IMG/VR virus record: IMGVR_UViG_3300032323_004296
DNA: 64,000 bases
Source: a virus
Taxonomy: Duplodnaviria; Heunggongvirae; Uroviricota; Caudoviricetes
Direction: 5' to 3' (one strand)
Positions 2,237 to 56,901 of this stretch are shown here, piece after piece. A program made the translations under genes and the position numbers. The notes under the pieces are model-generated. The model had not been told where the DNA came from, searched no databases, and saw nothing but the letters and a program-made list of their open reading frames with translations. The stretch's first letter is position 1. The number at the start of each line of letters is the position of its first letter.

Positions 2237-3307
2237 AAAAAAAAGTTTTATAAAAATTTGGAAGTATAAAAAACCTTTCTTAATTTTGTAGAACAATTGA
2301 AGGAAACGGGTTGTAAAGGTCCCTGAAAGGTTTCAGGTCGTAAAAATACCTTTTTCCTTCAAACTTGATAGTTCTTTGATTTAAGATATTGGGCGGTCTA
2401 TAGTCCATAAAATAAACTGTGAAAGCAGTATAAAGTGACCTACCTCGGTTGAAGTAGGTTGCGGCTCGATAGGGGTGTCCTCTGTTGAGCTCGAGTAGAC
2501 AAGCGGGATATCATCGTCCCTGAGTAGCTGAGGGTGACACTGTAGGCGAAATGGAATGATGACCAAGCGATGTGGTTCGTTTGGTTGAGGTGGGAACACC
2601 AATTAGAATAACCCGTAGAACTCTTGCAAGAAATATGGTCATCCAACTATATAATTGCGTGATTCAATATCAGAGTTGACTTAAAACCGAAAGGTATGAG
2701 TTCGTACAGGTGGTGCTGTTGTTCTCCTTAACCTTAGTCTACCAAGACATGAGTTATGAAGTTGACTTAAAGTATGGAGGTAGGGATATCTCAGAGAGTA
2801 GTTCAGTATTTCCTCGTTCAAAAGATGGGGAAGCAGGTTGACGGACCGCTACTTTCCAAATCCACAAACCAATTCATTTGTTAATATGGTTTAACAACTA
2901 ATAATTACAAACGGAAAAGTGTCCGTCAGTTGTCAGTGAAAGGTGACTACATAGTCGTGAAGAGTTCACGGCCGTGAAGGGTCCCAAGCCCGACACGATT
3001 TTTGAAAAAGTTCTCTATTCTCGCAAGGAAGTATTGGTGAGGCATCATCGAGGAGTAGCAAGTATCAAGAGAGTATCTGACAACTCAAGGTTTGATTAAC
3101 CTAATTAATCGTCACTGAGGATTACTTCTCAAAAGGAAGTGGAAACGAAGGGAACTCATAATCCTTTTAAAGATTCTCAAAATAAACTTGTATTCTCAAA
3201 GTTTTTTTAACTAATTGACCCCGTTTGTTTCTACAAATGGGGTTTTTTGTTTTTTTTTTTGGTAGATAAAAAAAATTCTTATATTTTCGTGTCCAAAACA
3301 AGAAAAA

Positions 3308-25715: not shown

Positions 25716-26567
25716 CTATATTATCTTTTTACCTTTTTTCATATTTTCTACACCCCACAATGGACGAAGATTTGTGTAGTGATTAAGTTTAATAACCTCC
25801 TCCAATGTTTTTGCGGATGATAAAGGAATTATGTGGTCTATGTGCCACCCCGAAAAACAGTAGTTATCCCAAGACATACCATCTTGGAATTGTTTTTCTA
25901 AATGTTCTTTCAGTTCTCGAGGGGTACATCCTATCATATTAAGAGTTTTAAAATGAGGTTTTTTTATTCCTTTATGTTTAAGGTATGCTTTGATTCTACC
26001 CCTTACGTTTTGGGATATTGCAAATAAAGGGTCAATTTTTCTCCTTTCTTTAACATATTTCTTTTGACGTTTCAAAATCATCTCACGATTATTTTTGACA
26101 TATATTTTTTTATGTTCATCAACTTTTTCTTTGTTAGACGAATAATAGTCAGACGAAGCCTTTTTACGACAATCTTTACAAACAGTGTTTAGACCATCAT
26201 TACTTATTCTAAGTTTACCAAAACATTTCATTTCCAAAATTTGATTACATCTATAACAATATTTTTTATTCTGTGATTTCGCTATCTCATAAATTTTTTC
26301 CTCTTCCAAAATAAAATCAACGCTCACCCCCCTCTTCCACGCTCTATGTTTAATGTTTCTTTCAAATTTTTCATTTTCAGTCAAGTTTTTTCTTTTTTCT
26401 TGATTCTTTTTCTTTTGTGCTTCATAAATCTCAGGGTTATTATTCAAATAAATCCTATTCAATTCTGTAGTACATTTTACACAATTAGGTCTTTTACCGC
26501 TTCTTAATTTATGAAAATTAGTAATGGGTTGTTCTATCCCACATCTTTTACATACTTTAGTTTCCAT
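25716..26567 (-). CDS. HNH homing-type endonuclease with N-terminal zinc finger
   Basis: C-terminus GWHIDHIIPLS...LNHYTNLRPLWGVENMKKGKK is the HNH motif. N-terminal CKRCG...CVKC zinc fingers. Confidence 0.75.
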   Translation of the reverse strand: METKVCKRCGIEQPITNFHKLRSGKRPNCVKCTTELNRIYLNNNPEIYEAQKKKNQEKRKNLTENEKFERNIKHRAWKRGVSVDFILEEEKIYEIAKSQNKKYCYRCNQILEMKCFGKLRISNDGLNTVCKDCRKKASSDYYSSNKEKVDEHKKIYVKNNREMILKRQKKYVKERRKIDPLFAISQNVRGRIKAYLKHKGIKKPHFKTLNMIGCTPRELKEHLEKQFQDGMSWDNYCFSGWHIDHIIPLSSAKTLEEVIKLNHYTNLRPLWGVENMKKGKKII

Positions 26568-26696: not shown

Positions 26697-26996
26697 TTAT
26701 TTAGTTTCAGTACTATGAAACTCCACATCATCGAATCGCTGATAGTGCTCAGGTCCGAGTGCATTAAAACAAGTCTCAGTTAATTCAGCCACTTCTTTAA
26801 AATCTTCCGTAATAGTAATATCTCCATCTTCGTCAGGGGTAACATAATAAATGACTATAAATTTTTCAACACCAATCTTTTTTAACCTTCCCATGACGGG
26901 TCTAAAAGTATCTGCCTTTATTTCGAAATCCTGTATAAAAGGGTACTTACCAATTATCAATTTCCTTATCAACTTATCTAACAAAACTTTCATCAT
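26697..26996 (-). CDS. hypothetical protein, tandem paralog 1
   Basis: MMKVLLDKLIRKLIIGKYPFIQDFEIK...ELTETCFNALGPEHYQR is about 65% identical to 27019..27354. Confidence 0.55.
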   Translation of the reverse strand: MMKVLLDKLIRKLIIGKYPFIQDFEIKADTFRPVMGRLKKIGVEKFIVIYYVTPDEDGDITITEDFKEVAELTETCFNALGPEHYQRFDDVEFHSTETK

Positions 26997-27018: not shown

Positions 27019-27354
27019 TTAATCCTCATAACCATAAAACTCAACATCTTTAACTCGCTGATAATCCGCAGGTCCTAACGCATTAAAACAAGTCTCAGTC
27101 AATTCTGTTATCTCTTTAAACTCATCATCATAAGGGTACTCTCCATTTTCATCAGGGGTTACATTATAAATAATGGTATATCTCTCAACATCAATCTTTC
27201 TAAACTTTCCTATTTTGGGTTTAAAAGTGTCTAATTTTATTTCAAAATCCTTAATGAAAGGATACTCACTAATTATTAATTTTCTTATCAAACTATCTAA
27301 CAAAACTTTCATCATACTAATAAGTATTTTAGTTGTCAAGTAATTCTTGACCAC
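27019..27354 (-). CDS. hypothetical protein, tandem paralog 2
   Basis: MMKVLLDSLIRKLIISEYPFIKDFEIK...ELTETCFNALGPADYQR. A flanking 18-bp repeat CTTACTCTATAATCGTAT is found 3' of each copy. Confidence 0.55.
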   Translation of the reverse strand: MVKNYLTTKILISMMKVLLDSLIRKLIISEYPFIKDFEIKLDTFKPKIGKFRKIDVERYTIIYNVTPDENGEYPYDDEFKEITELTETCFNALGPADYQRVKDVEFYGYED

Positions 27355-27491: not shown

Positions 27492-27929
27492 ATGAAAAAG
27501 TTGACAACCTTATTTACAATCTTAGCGTTATTGTTTGTCTCCTGTAAAGAAAAATTACCATCCAATATCTCTTCAGCACTTTACAATTATGAAAGACAGG
27601 TCCAATACAATAGAGAAAGTGATAGTATTATTCTTTCACTCACTAAAGAAAGCATAGATAAATTATCTATGGATAGTATAAACATTATTCTTTTCAGAAA
27701 TGCATATGCTTCAGATAGGTATAACGAAGTAGAAAAAAAATTAGATGAATATCTAAAATATAATCCAGAATATTCCGATTACAACGAGATAAAAAGTAAG
27801 GGTTTACCCTACAGGTACACAGACCTTACCAAATTTCATAACAATGTTCGCTACTTAAATGAAATAGAGTTCTATAATCATTCAATCAAGTATGACAAAA
27901 ATACTGAAAAACCTCAGTATGGATTGTAA
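27492..27929 (+). CDS. putative lipoprotein
   Basis: MKKLTTLFTILALLFVSCKEK is a signal peptide with lipobox LFVSC. The start was moved to the internal ATG. Confidence 0.55.
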   Translation: MKKLTTLFTILALLFVSCKEKLPSNISSALYNYERQVQYNRESDSIILSLTKESIDKLSMDSINIILFRNAYASDRYNEVEKKLDEYLKYNPEYSDYNEIKSKGLPYRYTDLTKFHNNVRYLNEIEFYNHSIKYDKNTEKPQYGL

Positions 27930-28746
27930 TAACAACCCAAACTATAACCCTCACTCAATAGTGGGGGTTTTATATAATATACTTTTAGTGGATTAGTAAT
28001 GTGTAGTATAGTTCACTCACTCCGATGACCAATACACCCTCACTATCGTTCGGGGTCACCTCCATTCGTTCTCTAACCACACATTACATTTCCCCCACCA
28101 TATAGTTCGTCCCCCATTTAATGACAGGACATAATGAGATGGTGATATATTGTGTCAAGCTATAACTTAACAAAACATCCCTTCGGGTCAAGCTATAAGT
28201 TTACTTTTGACACATACGAAGGACTATACGCAATTACATATAAAACAATACCTTCGGTAAAAATTATATGTAATAACATATAGTCCCACATATTCCCACC
28301 ATATGAGTTGTCCACTACGAAGGGGACTCGTTTGGTCCATATGAGGGGGTCATATAACCTATCCCTTCGGTCGTTGAAGGGGTTATTTTATAGGTTCTAA
28401 AGTTCACTTCGTTCACTCCCCCGCTATTATACTTAACAGCCCTTTTTTTGCTGGATTCCGAAGGTAGTAAAAAAATGGTCTTCCTGATATCTGCAGAGGG
28501 GAAAAAGTGGTCCTGACACTATCTATAACACAATATCGGTGGTAAAAAGTGGGAATCAGTGGTGGGAGAAAGTGGGGGAAAATGTGACGAGGGGATTATC
28601 CCCATCTCAACGAGTCCCCTGACATTCTGACAATTCCAAATTTTTCCGTATAAAAAGTTATCCACATCCCCTTTTTTAATAGCGTCAGACATAATGTCAG
28701 TGTGGATAATTATTTATTTTTATATGTTCCGTAATACCATTATGAC
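27930..28746. repeat. non-coding repeat-rich region: UUCG-type hairpins, AAAGTGG iteron-like repeats, palindrome GGGGATTATCCCC, convergent DnaA boxes
   Basis: 817 bp without ORFs. CCCTTCGG-type hairpins occur 4 or more times. TCAAGCTATAA occurs twice. (A)AAAGTGG(G) occurs 3-4 times at about 12-nt spacing (28497-28585). TTATCCACA at 28658-28666 and TGTGGATAA at 28701-28709. Confidence 0.45.
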
Positions 28747-29061
28747 ATGAAGACATGGAAAGACATTGTAACCCCAACGATAGAGTCACTTACTGAGGAC
28801 CGAGTGAGAGTAGTATTACAGGTAGAGGGAGTAGAAGTGGGGGTATTATATTTCGAGAAAGCAAAGAAGGGGTGGAACACAAAACCCATCCGACAGAGTG
28901 GATGGGCATGTGTGGAGGCTAAAGTCGAGGGACTATATGTTTATGGTGGGGAGAGTGCAACCCCCAAGGACTTAGTTGCTTGGTGTCAACAACTTATTTC
29001 AACTTCTTCTCAATCAGGGACCATACCCACATCAGGAGATACCCAAGGAACAGTGCTTTAA
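28747..29061 (+). CDS. hypothetical protein (locally GC-rich ORF)
   Basis: 104 aa. Composition is atypical (richer in GC) for this window. Confidence 0.45.
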   Translation: MKTWKDIVTPTIESLTEDRVRVVLQVEGVEVGVLYFEKAKKGWNTKPIRQSGWACVEAKVEGLYVYGGESATPKDLVAWCQQLISTSSQSGTIPTSGDTQGTVL

Positions 29062-29206
29062 GAAACTTTCTCATATTACTTTTTATTTATTGCTCTTACT
29101 AATAGAATGACTACGGTCCCCACAATTATGTACCCAATAAAGTCGGGGATGTTTTGTAACCCCCAAAGGAATAGGAACCCCACTATTAATGCTGACAGTA
29201 TGAATC

Positions 29207-29614
29207 TCATATCAATTGTTTTATTTGTTTGAATGCTTCGGTGTATAACTTCTCACTGTTTCTTGCTTCCACTTCATAGGGGTGGTTATCATATCCAACT
29301 TTCTTATAGAGTTGTATATAGGTATTCATATTCTGAAGGTAGTGAGTATACTCGTGAAGGAGGGTTTGGATAAACAACTTCACATCAGCAGCATATGCTC
29401 TATTCACCACAATCTTATTGGTCCCACAATCAAACATACCATAGAACTTATCATCGGGGTTGTTGATAACGGAAACCTTCGGGACCTTCTTATACTTATG
29501 GACCCCAAACTTGGCAATGGAATACATAAGGGTTAGGGAAGCAATCTCCTTAACCTTCTTCAAAGAAAGGTCCTGTGTATTGGTCTTTAATAATATGGTC
29601 TTGGTCATTTTCAT
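29207..29614 (-). CDS. small HExxH metallopeptidase-like protein (HEYTH...PYEVEA)
   Basis: LLHEYTHYLQ followed by a downstream E-x-E-A, as in 42735..43268. Confidence 0.55.
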   Translation of the reverse strand: MKMTKTILLKTNTQDLSLKKVKEIASLTLMYSIAKFGVHKYKKVPKVSVINNPDDKFYGMFDCGTNKIVVNRAYAADVKLFIQTLLHEYTHYLQNMNTYIQLYKKVGYDNHPYEVEARNSEKLYTEAFKQIKQLI

Positions 29615-29618
29615 ACTA

Positions 29619-29686
29619 CAAAGATACGCCCTTTTTCTGACATGGCCAAAAGAATTTTATATAGGGGGGAATAACCTACAAAGATA
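29619..29686 (-). promoter_or_regulatory. tandem -7 promoter elements (reverse complement of CGTATCTTTGTAG, two copies) for 29207..29614
   Basis: CTACAAAGATACG at 29617-29629 and 29677-29689 is the reverse complement of the 9587/10147 promoter 20-mer core. Confidence 0.5.
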
Positions 29687-29882
29687 CGAAATATTTCCCA
29701 AACTGCCAAATAAAGTTATCCACATATTAAGGTCAAGTTTTTCGAGCAGAAAACTTGACCTTAATAATATTATTAAGCAACCTGCCCCTGATTCAGCTCC
29801 AAGAGGTTCTCTCCAGCCCGTCCTACTTATATTCAGACAAAGCAAAGGTACAATGTATTTATGATATAACAAAAAATAATTT

Positions 29883-30311
29883 ATGTTTGGTAAAATAACA
29901 AGGGAAGAATTCTTGGACAACTATGAATACAAAGTAATAAGAAGATTACTGAAGAAAGAGTTCTCCTTCATTATTGATGTGGTCCCCACCGATAGCTTCG
30001 AAGAATATGCATCGCTCCATTTTGTATTTGTTGTTATTGACCCCAATAAGTTTATAGAAGAACATCCCGAAGCTAAACTATACTCTTACATATCATACCT
30101 TGGTGATACAATCATGCCAGGTTATGTATATGGTATGTCATTCAAGTTCTTCTTCAATTCAGAGGAAGACTTCTATCCAATACAACAAGAAATCAATGAT
30201 ACCATAAAAGGAGTACATAACTCCAACTCAATACCATCGGACCTTAAACTCCCCACCACAATATCTGTATCAGGTTTCTTAGTACCAAAAAAACTTATCC
30301 CCACAACTTAA
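29883..30311 (+). CDS. hypothetical protein
   Basis: 142-aa ORF. Confidence 0.5.
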   Translation: MFGKITREEFLDNYEYKVIRRLLKKEFSFIIDVVPTDSFEEYASLHFVFVVIDPNKFIEEHPEAKLYSYISYLGDTIMPGYVYGMSFKFFFNSEEDFYPIQQEINDTIKGVHNSNSIPSDLKLPTTISVSGFLVPKKLIPTT

Positions 30312-30541
30312 CTATCTTATCCCCCCCGTCATTATGTCTGTTAATAACTAACAGGGGGAGGGGTATAAATTGTGGATAACTCCCCCCCATTATACCCCCC
30401 TCTGGCATGGGGGTACCACCCCCCCCTCCTAGGTATCCCCCCTCCCTATACGTCAAAATGTCAGAATAGGGGGGATAATACCTTAGATTACGCGAAAAAA
30501 ATTTTTGGGAAAATTGGAACCATTTTAGGTATTTATAAACT
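30312..30541. repeat. non-coding region with multiple C/G homopolymer runs and a DnaA box
   Basis: Runs of C6-C8 and G5-G7. TGTGGATAA at 30371-30379. AAAAAAATTTTTGGGAAAATT element at 30495-30516. ORF 30372..30554 (Pro-rich) is an artefact of the C-runs. Confidence 0.45.
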
Positions 30542-30814
30542 ATGGATTATATAGTTAAAGAATCACAACTAACAAATTTTTTGAAGAGGAGGTTTTCTAT
30601 GGAAGACCTTGAACAAATTGTAAATGATGTTAAGGGGAGTATTGAGCAAGGGGAGAATTGGGATACCTCACTATATGATGGAATTAGACAATTAATCAAA
30701 AGTAAAAAATTTAAAGACATTGATGAGTTTGGAAATGATGAGTCATATTGGAATTCATATCTGAAATATGAAAAGGAGTTGTTGGCTTATGTTGTTTCCA
30801 AATTGAATTTATAA
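30542..30814 (+). CDS. hypothetical protein (leader MDYIVKESQLTNFLKRR, family B-like)
   Basis: N-terminus resembles the B family. Confidence 0.45.
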   Translation: MDYIVKESQLTNFLKRRFSMEDLEQIVNDVKGSIEQGENWDTSLYDGIRQLIKSKKFKDIDEFGNDESYWNSYLKYEKELLAYVVSKLNL

Positions 30815-30874
30815 TCCCATATAGTCAAAAAAAATTTTTGGAAAAATTTTGTATTTATGATAAAATAGGGTTAT

Positions 30875-31276
30875 ATGAAAAAGGTTGTAAGATTAACTGA
30901 GTCTGATTTGTCAAAGTTGGTTAAAAGGGTTTTAATTGAACAGGAGAAACAATCATCATTTATGGATAAGTTATCTTCAATAAATTTTGATTTACCAAAT
31001 GCGAAACAGGTTCTCAAGAAAATGGTATTATTTCCTATTGAAATGGTATTGGGAAATCTTCCTCCTGTAATGATGGGGAAGGTTGCATATTTTCTTTTCA
31101 AGAATAAGGATAGTGTTCCTGAGATTTCTGCATGTATTCAACAAACAAGGTTTAGATTTCCAAAATCTTGTGATGGGTCATCAAACTTTCAAAGTGGTCC
31201 ATGTATTAGTTCGTTAAAACAAAATTCATCTCAACTTGGGGATTTATATTCTTGTATAAAGGGAAAGATGAAATAA
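30875..31276 (+). CDS. leader family A protein (MKKVVRLTESDLSKLVKRVLIEQ)
   Basis: Conserved leader with a Cys-containing body. Confidence 0.6.
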   Translation: MKKVVRLTESDLSKLVKRVLIEQEKQSSFMDKLSSINFDLPNAKQVLKKMVLFPIEMVLGNLPPVMMGKVAYFLFKNKDSVPEISACIQQTRFRFPKSCDGSSNFQSGPCISSLKQNSSQLGDLYSCIKGKMK

Positions 31277-31716: not shown

Positions 31717-31831
31717 TTTCTATAACATGACCCCCCCTTTTATAATTTATCTCCTATTCTCAAAAAAAAATTTTTGGGAAAATTATTATTTTTTGGGTTT
31801 TGTATTTTAGTTTTGGAATTAAACTTATGAT

Positions 31832-40931: not shown

Positions 40932-41801
40932 ATGAAAAAGTTAATTTTCCTATTATTTTTTCCAATTTTAGTTTTTTCTCAGTCTGAAAGAGCACAAAAA
41001 GCTGAAGTAAGAAGTTTCGGAACCTATGGTCCATCAACTTCTTCACAATTCAGAACAGAATCTTTTAATAGACCATCAACTAACGAGTTCCAACAGAAAC
41101 AAAGTGCAAGAAACCGACGTTCTGAGTATTATGCCCCTCAAAACAACCGACCAGGTAGATACTTTGGTTACGACCCATGGATGGATTGGGGTTGGGGATT
41201 CAATAGGTGGTCTCCTATGTGGGGATGGAATACTTTTACACCTTTTTTTTGGTATGATAGTTGGGGATATAGGAATCCAGGAAGGGTATACATGTACGAT
41301 GACGGAAAAAGAGATACAATCCGATTGAAACCAGTTCATGGTTCAATCGGATTGTCCTATAATTTAAATTCTGAGTTTGGTGTTTGGGGAACTTTGGGTC
41401 GTGAAATATATGTAATCGCAGAGTTCTCTAAAAATAACCCAAGAGATATATCAGTTTTTTATCCACAACTAACTTTAGACAAAGTTATCCCTTGGGAAGA
41501 CAGAAAACTTTCTAATTATCAACAACAATCTACTTTTTCGATTGGTTTGGGAAAAAAATTAAATAAATTTGCAGGCGTTCACATGATGGTAGGGTTCGGA
41601 AGAGAAAAAAACAACTTTAGATATTTCGATGAATTATTTATATTGTCCAATAATGGAGAATATAGTTTTCCTAACTTTAGAACCAACATAACAACGTTCA
41701 AAATTGGTACACTTTTGAATTTGTCAAATAAATTCAATTCCAAAATAGATTACGACTTAGGTGTACGTCACATATCTTGGGGTTTGGGTGTAAAACTTTA
41801 A
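40932..41801 (+). CDS. secreted Trp/aromatic-rich protein (possible outer-membrane beta-barrel)
   Basis: Signal peptide MKKLIFLLFFPILVFSQ. C-terminal half has alternating hydrophobic residues typical of beta strands. Confidence 0.55.
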   Translation: MKKLIFLLFFPILVFSQSERAQKAEVRSFGTYGPSTSSQFRTESFNRPSTNEFQQKQSARNRRSEYYAPQNNRPGRYFGYDPWMDWGWGFNRWSPMWGWNTFTPFFWYDSWGYRNPGRVYMYDDGKRDTIRLKPVHGSIGLSYNLNSEFGVWGTLGREIYVIAEFSKNNPRDISVFYPQLTLDKVIPWEDRKLSNYQQQSTFSIGLGKKLNKFAGVHMMVGFGREKNNFRYFDELFILSNNGEYSFPNFRTNITTFKIGTLLNLSNKFNSKIDYDLGVRHISWGLGVKL

Positions 41802-55785: not shown

Positions 55786-56901
55786 TTATTTTTTTTCTTT
55801 ACCACCTTCTTGTGTGGCATATTTTATACCCATAATTGTTCCTACTATTGAGAATGCGTTTGTCAATAATACACTAAACATGTTACTCCAAGTCGAGCCA
55901 ATAATCTGTGTATCCTTACCAGTAATGATTGCCATCCAATACAATATAGTTGTTACAACACCTACCCCGACAATAACAGCTAGTGCAACTTTTACGATTA
56001 CCTTAATTAACTCAGATTGACTTTTTTTCATTACCACATCCAAATCATTCAACGCAGCGTTCTTCTCTCTTTCAATTGAGTCTTTGAGTTTTTCCGATTC
56101 CTTTAACTGTAGTTGCAAATCTTTTGATAATAAATCAATTTCCTTTTTATTATTTACTGCTTCGGTAACATCAGTGGCAATTTTAATTACACTTGTAACG
56201 TTTCCTTTACTGTCAAAGACAGGATTATAAGTTGCCTGTAGATAGATAGTAGACCCATCTACTTTTTTTCTTTCGAATATCCCATCTAAAAACTTACCAT
56301 TATTTAAGTTCTTCCAAAACTTAGAATACTCATCAGATTTTGAATACTCATAACTAACAAAAATACTATGATGCTTTCCAACAACTTGATTTTTTTCGTT
56401 TGGTTTAAAACCCATTGTTTCTAAGAAAATTTCATTAGCATCCAAAATAAAACCCTTCATGTCAAAAGTAATAGTGGCGGTACTTTTGTTAATTGCATCT
56501 ATTTGTTTTTTACTATCAACAATTGCAGTAATGTCAGTAGCAACTTTCATTATTTTAGTAATCGTACCAGTTTCATCAAAAATAGGGTTGTAGGTTGCTT
56601 GTAAGTTGATAAGATTACCGTCTCTTTTTCTTCTTTCAAATTCCCCTTTATAGTACTTACCACTTCTTAAGATATCCCAAAACTTTTCGTACTCTAACGA
56701 CCTTGCATAATCTTCACATACAAAAATACTATGGTGTTTACCAACAATTTCCGCGTGCTCATCCTCCCCATATCCCATTGCCTTCAAAAAAATAGCATTA
56801 ACACCTAAAATTTTTCCGGTTAGGTCAAAATAAATAAGAGCGTTACTCCTATTTATCGCCTCCATCCTGCTGAGTAACTCTTCCTTTGATAGGTTCTTCA
56901 C
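55786..56901 (-). CDS. tandem PAS-domain protein with C-terminal coiled-coil and TM anchor
   Basis: Two repeats of about 120 aa matching the PAS_3 pattern (GKHHSIFV..Y.....KFW..L..GK...G.FERKK.DG..I.LQATYNP.FD..G....I.K.ATD.T). C-terminal TM IVKVALAVIVGVGVV... Confidence 0.7.
   Translation of the reverse strand: MKNLSKEELLSRMEAINRSNALIYFDLTGKILGVNAIFLKAMGYGEDEHAEIVGKHHSIFVCEDYARSLEYEKFWDILRSGKYYKGEFERRKRDGNLINLQATYNPIFDETGTITKIMKVATDITAIVDSKKQIDAINKSTATITFDMKGFILDANEIFLETMGFKPNEKNQVVGKHHSIFVSYEYSKSDEYSKFWKNLNNGKFLDGIFERKKVDGSTIYLQATYNPVFDSKGNVTSVIKIATDVTEAVNNKKEIDLLSKDLQLQLKESEKLKDSIEREKNAALNDLDVVMKKSQSELIKVIVKVALAVIVGVGVVTTILYWMAIITGKDTQIIGSTWSNMFSVLLTNAFSIVGTIMGIKYATQEGGKEKK

Follow-up and report, generated by a model that had tools for sequence, protein, structure and literature searches.

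The stretch of DNA examined here, called the window below, is the whole 64,000-nucleotide (nt) sequence of the virus record IMGVR_UViG_3300032323_004296 (Caudoviricetes), and the locus in question occupies positions 27930–30541. The plus strand from about 27996 to 28604 encodes a structured RNA of about 600 nt, for which both the fold and the strand are established by the sequences of its relatives. The RNA represents a previously undescribed family that is present in many uncultured lake phages. The locus is probably best understood as two conserved systems superimposed on each other, this large RNA and a pair of mutually inverted DNA modules that carry DnaA boxes. The sequence-only reading had proposed a candidate replication origin and regulatory hub built on iterons. 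A conserved noncoding hub with real DnaA boxes does exist; the iteron-type origin finds no support.

The gene immediately downstream of the RNA, open reading frame (ORF) 104, connects the window with its relatives. Distant ORF104 homologs, down to 54% identity, are always preceded by a gene-free gap of 700–870 nt, and in these lineages the gap keeps colinear patches of similarity with identical spacing between the conserved motifs. The cores of the RNA keep their fixed spacing even in lineages with an ORF104 identity of only about 55%. A spacing-tolerant search pattern, TAGTAAAAA-N108-128-GGGGATTRTCCCC, yielded 22 contigs from IMG/VR (8–195 kb) and at least 120 from metagenomes, for the most part of lakes, and the family comprises at least 140 contigs. 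The set used for analysis contained 123 full-length copies, with 87 representatives at <95% identity; a few chance matches were later removed. Because the pattern itself fixes two motifs, these are necessarily invariant in this set; nine lineages found through ORF104 show both of them independently of the pattern. The alignments reveal the noncoding DNA as a mosaic, in which segments with one hairpin swapped for another lie between perfectly conserved cores. Compared with relative L012, the noncoding parts are 82% identical, versus 69–75% for the adjacent ORFs.

The search of 27700–30700 against the Rfam 15 covariance models gave no match above chance, with E up to 10, and eight relatives gave none at the gathering score. 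In a large survey of phage structured RNAs the elements average 67 nt (PMC10690425), and that survey may therefore hold fragments of the RNA rather than the whole. The elements of the RNA, from 5′ to 3′, are as follows.

27996–28087 (+): 5′ domain, with a closing stem (27996–28004 with 28079–28087) around a conserved internal loop and a variable GC hairpin.
28089–28150 (+): C-rich 5′ core strand with UUUCCCCCACC, GUCCCCCAU, AAUGACAGGAC and AUGAGAUGGUGAU, from the family alignments.
28127–28130 (GGAC) with 28310–28313 (GUCC) (+): helix H2, from pair counts and the duplex test.
28151–28283 (+): two variable peripheral hairpins with UUCG caps; relatives have unrelated hairpins at the same position.
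28284–28289 with 28549–28554 and 28296–28300 with 28538–28542 (+): long-range helix H1, from RNAalifold on the core columns.
28322–28421 (+): helix of GGGG (28322–28325) with CCCC (28418–28421), enclosing the CCCUUCGG hairpin at 28361–28383 and the hairpin at 28402–28416.
28441–28478 (+): 3′-domain hairpin of CC/GG, U5/A5 and CUG/UAG with conserved AUAGUAAAAA.
28479–28500 (+): 3′-domain hairpin UCUUC/GAGGG, rich in G·U.
28555–28590 (+): G-rich, "iteron-like" strand CAGUGGUGGGAGAAAGUGGGGGAAAAUG, forming a duplex with the C-rich 5′ strand.
28591–28603 (+): palindrome GGGGATTATCCCC, or GGGGAUUAUCCCC hairpin, 117–118 nt after TAGTAAAAA in the nine lineages found through ORF104.

Among the 87 representatives, C(UNCG)G occurs 89 times on the plus strand and 3 times on the minus strand, with equal G and C contents. 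The variable segments always fold as hairpins, often with UUCG, UACG or UGCG loops. The 35 pairs of seven helices are 87.3% paired in 84 sequences, versus 52–64% when the 3′ partners are slid by 1–3 columns, and none of 500 shuffles reaches the observed value for any of the five measures. Both sides have changed in 21 of these 35 pairs, and many pairs of the set exchange U·G with C-G or U-A. G·U accounts for about 12% of the paired cells; on the other strand these would become A·C mismatches. The fold of the plus strand has a z-score of −4.5. The locus thus displays conserved, strand-specific pairing with compensatory and wobble changes, the mark of a structured noncoding RNA.

Helix H1 is 84–85% paired, with both sides changed in 10 of 11 pairs, and its own strands pair better than strands taken from other members (p=6e-5). 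For H2, a sequence's own duplex beats the cross-sequence duplexes in 64 of 77 cases (p=7.7e-9). H1 and H2 therefore co-evolve, and since the two helices cross they constitute a pseudoknot; the first constrained fold was invalid for this very reason. The duplex of 28555–28590 with 28089–28120 has a mean of −19.2 kcal/mol, against −14.0 kcal/mol for shuffles, and is the more stable in 70 of 77 sequences. The hairpin at 28402–28416 shows A-U/G-C and C-G/U-A swaps, and the pair counts are UA:42 and UG:35 for 28482–28497 and UG:71 for 28479–28500. RNAalifold on raw MAFFT alignments, of either the full region or the 5′ domain, recovered almost no structure, because hairpin swaps and chance sequences (L133, L134, L141) spoil the alignment. 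Plain mutual information mainly reflected phylogeny and the ambiguity of G-run/C-run pairing.

In the 5′ domain the internal-loop sequences UCACUCACUCC and AUUCGUUC are conserved. The domain is 88% identical with that of L018, is found upstream of the core in many family members, and in seven of nine cases folds to the same architecture with entirely different closing stems (z-scores −2.9 to −7.6). Conservation with L001, L005 and L012 begins at 28086. The sequence GGGUCACCUCCAU at 28056–28066 in this domain is not conserved in the relatives; it matches the anti-Shine-Dalgarno end of 16S rRNA (UCACCUCC), probably by coincidence. The core carries conserved A-rich joining segments. Another candidate helix, 28322–28332 with 28609–28619, was rejected, as only its GGGG/CCCC part is conserved and this part is indistinguishable from 28322–28325 with 28418–28421.

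The motifs listed in the sequence-only reading were all located where it had placed them, and several now have a place in the RNA. GTCAAGCTATAA occurs twice, at 28154 and 28187, as a duplication within the first peripheral hairpin. The UUCG hairpins are present as three A(T/C)CCTTCGG copies at 28177, 28248 and 28361, and these UUCG CCCTTCGG hairpins are peripheral stem-loops of the RNA. The palindrome GGGGATTATCCCC lies at 28591–28603 as described and is probably an RNA structure; it could serve either as the 3′ element of the RNA or as the first element of the left DNA module. AAAGTGG-type repeats exist, at intervals of 42, 23 and 12 nt instead of the regular 12-nt spacing that had been claimed. 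A reading of these repeats as iterons is not supported. They are 7–12 nt long, irregular, lost in the diverged L026 clade, and strands of RNA helices; the first copies are the 3′ strands of H1.

Directly behind the RNA begins the second conserved system, with the following elements.

28619–28631 (+): CTGACATTCTGAC, a direct TGACA repeat conserved throughout the family.
28654–28666 (+): DnaA box 1, AAAGTTATCCACA, with a conserved AAAG flank.
28685–28700 (no strand assigned): near-palindrome TCAGACATAATGTCAG, with family consensus CTGACATAGTGTCA.
28701–28709 (−): DnaA box 2 (TGTGGATAA on the plus strand); relatives have one or two reverse boxes here.
28710–28740: conserved AT-rich tract CTTTATTTTTATATGTTCC, after the last box and directly before the ORF104 start codon.
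30312–30480 (−): right module, an inverted and diverged copy of the left module, 28589–28717.

The DnaA box TTATCCACA occurs five times in the window, at 28658(+), 28701(−), 29716(+), 30371(−) and 41459(+), while 1.04 ± 1.0 copies are expected in 64 kb and none of 100 shuffles reaches five. Four of the five fall within 28658–30379 (1.72 kb), where about 0.03 are expected. The four perfect boxes noticed in the sequence-only reading are thus non-random, and boxes are kept at fixed positions across a large phage family. The fifth copy, at 41459–41467 (+), falls inside ORF 40932–41801 and has probably arisen by chance.

After the GGGGATTATCCCC hairpin, the elements of the family follow in the order CTGACATTYTGACA, CCAAATTTTT, AAAGTTATCCACA, about 20 nt, CTGACATAGTGTCA, one or two TGTGGATAA boxes, and CTTTATTTTTATATGTTCC. 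The forward box is perfect in 44 of 76 representatives and has at most one mismatch in 59 of them. Counted from the palindrome, it stands at +52, and the reverse boxes at +95 and +110/111. The position matrix across the family is AAAG-TT[A/T]T[C/T][C/A]ACA, in agreement with the DnaA-box cluster pattern TT(A/T)TNCACA. Variation is mostly at positions 3, 5 and 6; positions 3 and 5 are degenerate in the DnaA consensus, and position 6 gives the C6-to-A variant. Boxes 1 and 2 of the window form an inverted repeat that could fold as a hairpin, and such an RNA stem was excluded, as its arms vary independently across the family, for example TTATCAACA with TTATCCACA. Because the variation is independent and falls at DnaA-degenerate positions, the boxes behave as protein-binding sites and not as an RNA stem. 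The second TGACA copy doubles as a −35-like hexamer, with a TAnnnT hexamer 16–18 bp downstream (TTGACA-18-TAAAGT was flagged in L034), and the two make a putative sigma-70-like promoter whose −10 abuts box 1. No 13-mer or DnaA-trio repeats are visible at the AT-rich tract CTTTATTTTTATATGTTCC.

Exact matches to CTGACAnnnTGAC in the window are found only at 28619(+) and, inverted, at 30452–30464(−). Read on the minus strand, the right module consists of ATTATCCCCCC, CTGACATTTTGAC (30464–30452), G runs, AGTTATCCACA (30381–30371) and CAGACATAATGAC (30340–30328), and the motif order common to both modules is ATTATCCCC, CTGACATTYTGAC, AGTTATCCACA, CAGACATAATG. A profile of 30312–30480 from 64 relatives matches 28633–28589(−) with E=0.004 and 28715–28652(−) with E=0.07 (nhmmer). 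The right module is conserved in 67 loci and contains G/C-run insertions of mostly fixed length that form hairpin arms; the arms TATCCCCCC and GGGGGGATA are constant in length. The C and G runs pointed out earlier in 30312–30480 are there. Their suggested phase variation by slippage is disfavoured because the lengths of the C runs are mostly fixed, with C6 at 30437 in 63 of 64 sequences and C6 at 30398 in 55 of 64.

The modules bracket a small gene cassette. The sequence-only reading placed two ORFs among the long noncoding stretches; there are three, all of them conserved. The genes and the remaining noncoding features are these.

28747–29061 (+): ORF104, which encodes a small alpha/beta protein and is the RNA's constant neighbour on the downstream side.
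29207–29614 (−): ORF135, an HExxH protein with weak SprT/zincin-like similarity.
29616–29766 (no strand assigned): left half of the divergent intergenic region, with two 42-nt direct repeats, AAAGTTATCCACAT (29712–29725) and a perfect 17-bp hairpin at 29725–29766.
29767–29882 (+): conserved stretch of about 80 nt preceding ORF142 (CUGAUUMAGCUCCAAGAGGUGUUCACUCCAGCCCGUCC...).
29883–30311 (+): ORF142, a conserved alpha/beta protein.
30496–30541 (+): A-tract followed by TTTTTGGGAAAA, early-promoter-like, at the start of the next gene; it recurs at 30832, at 31768 and in relatives.

Of 114 loci found independently, 95 have an ORF104 homolog behind the RNA and on its strand. Among relatives of about 90% identity ORF104 has only synonymous changes, and the constraint on it is very strong. 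In the most diverged clades the RNA persists with no detectable ORF104. ORF135 diverges as an ordinary gene and is missing from some relatives. None of the three proteins has a Rep-like match in Pfam, PHROGs or the PDB, and fold searches were uninformative.

The element upstream of ORF142 is about 82% identical over many loci, shows a compensatory GAG/CUC to GGU/ACC change, ends in the DnaA box AAAGTTATCCACAT in most relatives and has no Rfam match. It may be a separate small structured leader of ORF142. The hairpin at 29725–29766 is exchanged for a different one in L003 and L004. Hairpins of the form GTCAAGTTT-N8-10-AAACTTGAC occur at 29732–29759 here (one in the window, 0.04 expected) and, at different noncoding sites, upstream of the RNA in L012, L014 and L018; they might represent a family of terminators or a mobile hairpin of small size. 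The elements AAAAAATTTTTGG(G/A)AAAA at 30499–30513, 30832–30846 and 31768–31782, also present in L003, L004 and L026, are followed by TTGGAA-17-TAAAAT-type sigma-70 hexamers before successive small genes. They look like a strong early promoter family with A-tract UP elements. No visible Shine-Dalgarno sequence accompanies the genes near them.

Several points weigh against reading the locus as an RNA combined with DnaA-box modules. The covariation of the core is modest, the family sequences are phylogenetically related, which makes the shuffle controls overstate significance, and several G-run/C-run pairings are ambiguous. Most family members come from a pattern that fixes two motifs. The candidate helix 28135–28147 with 28597–28609, an inverted repeat, failed its test. 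The ends of the RNA are placed provisionally, by conservation; the window contains no canonical terminator after 28604 and no clear promoter before 27996, and transcription of 27996–28604 is inferred. On the DNA side, the L026 clade has a stem in place of box 1, the binding of DnaA is a prediction, and the locus has no sequence homology to phage T5, whose modules it resembles in design.

The origin proposed in the sequence-only reading would have a phage initiator bind the AAAGTGG repeats and host DnaA bind the boxes, with 28710–28740 melting. The four perfect boxes in 1.7 kb, their conservation in the family ahead of a conserved AT-rich tract, and the box clusters on either side of a small gene cassette, reminiscent of bipartite oriC regions, speak in favour of such an origin. 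Its supposed iterons, however, are repeats of 7–8 nt spaced 42, 23 and 12 nt apart, missing in diverged relatives and serving as strands of conserved RNA helices, and no series of three or more regular direct repeats of about 17–22 bp was found. The three ORFs have no Rep- or helicase-loader-like similarity, and the 64-kb window contains no replication genes. The GC skew, which the sequence-only reading had named as a check, does not switch at the locus. It is positive on either side, and its cumulative curve rises on both, dipping only over the minus-strand genes at 25–27 kb. Phage GC skew mainly follows transcription, so this check is a weak one. The analogous boxes of T5 also lie far from mapped origins. 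Lacking regular iterons, a Rep-like neighbour and a skew switch, the locus falls short of an iteron-type origin in most of the features that define one, and we regard such an origin as very unlikely. An origin of another type, in which the transcript hybridizes through its G runs and primes DNA synthesis as in ColE1 RNA II or T4 R-loops, is at best equally doubtful. In its favour, DnaA boxes and an AT-rich tract follow directly on the end of a structured, roughly 600-nt RNA that has many G runs and C runs, and the geometry resembles that of the ColE1 origin with its RNA II (about 555 nt) and DnaA box. Yet neither an antisense regulator nor an RNase H-type site is identifiable, the pseudoknotted core and A-rich junctions exceed the needs of priming, and skew and gene context also speak against it.

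The whole of 27996–28746 might instead be one long cis-acting leader of ORF104, an attenuator or riboswitch-like element and not an independent RNA. It precedes ORF104 on the same strand in 95 of 114 loci, no canonical terminator separates the two, and the inverted repeat 28650–28717 with its U-rich tract could be an attenuator hairpin. A leader of 750 nt for a protein of 104 residues would nevertheless be extraordinary, a conserved TTGACA-N16-18-TAnnnT promoter-like site stands between the RNA core and ORF104, and the arms of the boxes vary independently, without compensation. The diverged clades with the RNA and no detectable ORF104 also disagree with a leader, which we consider unlikely, though less so than an origin of either kind. 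That the hairpins and repeats act as a structural signal in DNA, such as a T5-like injection stop or a packaging site, agrees with the module at 28589–28717, which is clearly DNA-level. It is hard to reconcile with the extreme strand asymmetry (UNCG 89 versus 3) or with the 12% of G·U cells, which are A·C on the other strand and would not be tolerated in a double-stranded DNA signal; the noncoding regions of T5, moreover, have no UNCG bias. For the RNA region this explanation is highly improbable.

The closest known analogue of the modules is the pair of inverted DnaA-box repeats of T5. The pre-early region of T5 has three untranslated repeat regions, better conserved than the surrounding ORFs, with two mutually inverted modules, IRC-spacer-IRD and IRD′-spacer-IRC′, that lie 1.85–4.3 kb apart in T5-like phages (Davison, bioRxiv 10.1101/866236). 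About eight DnaA boxes are spread over the two modules, among them the variants TTATCAACA, TTATTAACA and TTATCCCCA; the mapped origins lie far from these modules, for which a role as an injection stop signal, through binding of membrane-associated DnaA, was proposed (bioRxiv 10.1101/866236). Both systems have long untranslated regions among small early ORFs, conserved better than the ORFs, two inverted DnaA-box modules (here about 1.8 kb apart), TTATCCACA along with the variants TTATCAACA, TTATTAACA and TTATCCCCA, and strong sigma-70-type early promoters beside the modules. Direct examination of the T5 modules showed that the design is alike, whereas the sequence, box pairing and spacer are not. 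T5 boxes are paired at 3 bp with a 52-bp spacer, while here the forward box is single, and the reverse boxes, one or two in number, lie 43 and about 58 bp beyond it. The TGACA repeats and G/C runs are specific to the lake-phage family, and T5 has no UNCG-biased structured RNA beside its modules. Neither the RNA nor the modules showed homology to the left terminal repeat of T5. In the window, for which genome ends are not available, neither a terminal repeat nor genes for A1, A2 or dmp were noticed.

The RNA resembles GOLLD (RF02032), ROOL and OLE in its length of several hundred nt, its phage-borne nature, its conserved cores with variable peripheral hairpins, and its long-range and pseudoknotted helices. 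It differs from them in matching none of the covariance models (E up to 10), in not lying beside tRNA genes, and in its tight linkage to a small protein gene and DnaA-box modules. Iteron-bearing theta origins (P1 oriR, pSC101, F, RK2) and oriC likewise have clustered consensus boxes in both orientations with an adjoining AT-rich tract, and bipartite oriC regions have two box clusters flanking genes, but the present locus has no regular 17–22 bp iterons, no adjacent rep or dnaA and no skew switch. As with ColE1 RNA II, a structured RNA of about 0.6 kb ends just upstream of a DnaA-box region; in contrast to ColE1, there is no RNA I equivalent and no sign of an R-loop or processing, and the conserved core is far more elaborate.

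The window is AT-rich (32% GC), and 28001–29000 has 41% GC, versus about 32% in the rest. A lake-metagenome scaffold matches it identically. Searched against 50,697 deposited phage records, the nucleotide sequence of 27500–31000 matched none of them. Known phages lack close relatives of the proteins of the window, and neither a protein-pattern scan of IMG/VR for ORF135 nor an exact 24-mer scan of IMG/VR returned anything. The exact ORF104 protein is present on 16 contigs, which are about 90% identical with the window from 28086 to about 30530 and carry unrelated DNA upstream. Among species-representative genomes the sole true member of the RNA family is L174 (RFVZ01000507.1, 1381 bp); the other four of five family matches in metagenome-assembled genomes (MAGs) are chance. 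The bin that contains L174 is a Betaproteobacteria MAG, no more than a weak hint of the host.

The recognizable genes of the window are of accessory or early types, including glycosyltransferases, UDP-galactopyranose mutase, a PAS protein, an SPFH protein and methyltransferases. The protein at 55786–56901 (−) contains two PAS domains (PAS_3 5e-24, PAS_9 7e-21); a phage-encoded sensory PAS module is unusual. An endonuclease VII/HNH-like gene lies at 25716–26567 (−), 1.4 kb upstream of the locus, and Y-family DNA polymerase (IMS/UmuC-like) and HNH genes are found in the variable region upstream of the RNA in several relatives (L001, L026, L029). As such genes fill this region in relatives, the left border of the conserved block, at 28086 or 27996, would be a recombination hotspot. 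Two adjacent paralogous small ORFs, 26697–26996 (−) and 27019–27354 (−), share the sequence MMKVLLD.LIRKLII..YPFI.DFEIK and are an ORFan tandem duplication just upstream of the locus. Elsewhere in the window, at 2794–3202 (+), there is a full-length match to GOLLD (RF02032), with 313 bits against a gathering score of 150 and E=1e-88. A tRNA-Met at 2160–2233 lies just upstream, as is typical of GOLLD. With the new RNA, this phage would therefore encode two large ornate RNAs.

According to the two-system reading, the plus strand of about 27996–28604 would be transcribed into a noncoding RNA of about 600 nt, with a stem-closed 5′ domain and a core closed by pseudoknotted helices that set C-rich 5′ against G-rich 3′ strands. 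The RNA may act with ORF104, as an RNA-protein particle or as a structured leader of that gene, and like GOLLD it would be a structural or catalytic RNA of the infection stage. A stand-alone or ORF104-associated structural or catalytic RNA with early expression is the favoured interpretation, given the linkage in 95 of 114 loci and the strong constraint on ORF104. The modules at 28589–28717 and 30312–30480 would function as double-stranded DNA around the three-gene cassette. In each, we infer, host DnaA could bind the 13-nt AAAGTTATCCACA sites and a second factor the TGACA repeats. Replication initiation is not the likely role of the modules. The most likely effect would be DnaA-dependent control or tethering of the early cassette, as proposed for T5, because box 1 abuts the TTGACA-N16-18-TAnnnT promoter-like site. 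The fullest version, in which a new class of ornate, pseudoknotted RNA of about 600 nt, found widely among uncultured freshwater phages, forms a particle with ORF104 and is wired to host DnaA by T5-like modules, is possible and is offered tentatively.

The locus cautions that repeats and DnaA boxes are insufficient as evidence of an origin. To our knowledge, few large structured RNAs have been described in bacteria and phages, namely GOLLD, ROOL, OLE, HEARO and raiA, and each of them opened a structural and functional line of research. With at least 140 diverse natural sequences, the present family is large enough for rigorous covariation modelling and cryo-EM; it also has a constant protein partner and occurs here in a genome that encodes GOLLD as well. 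T5-like inverted modules in unrelated uncultured phages suggest that recruitment of DnaA to early noncoding DNA may be a general phage strategy, and the lake phages provide a second system, beside T5, in which the function of such modules can be tested. If the proposed wiring is correct, the early development of these phages would be tied directly to the replication-initiation state of the host.

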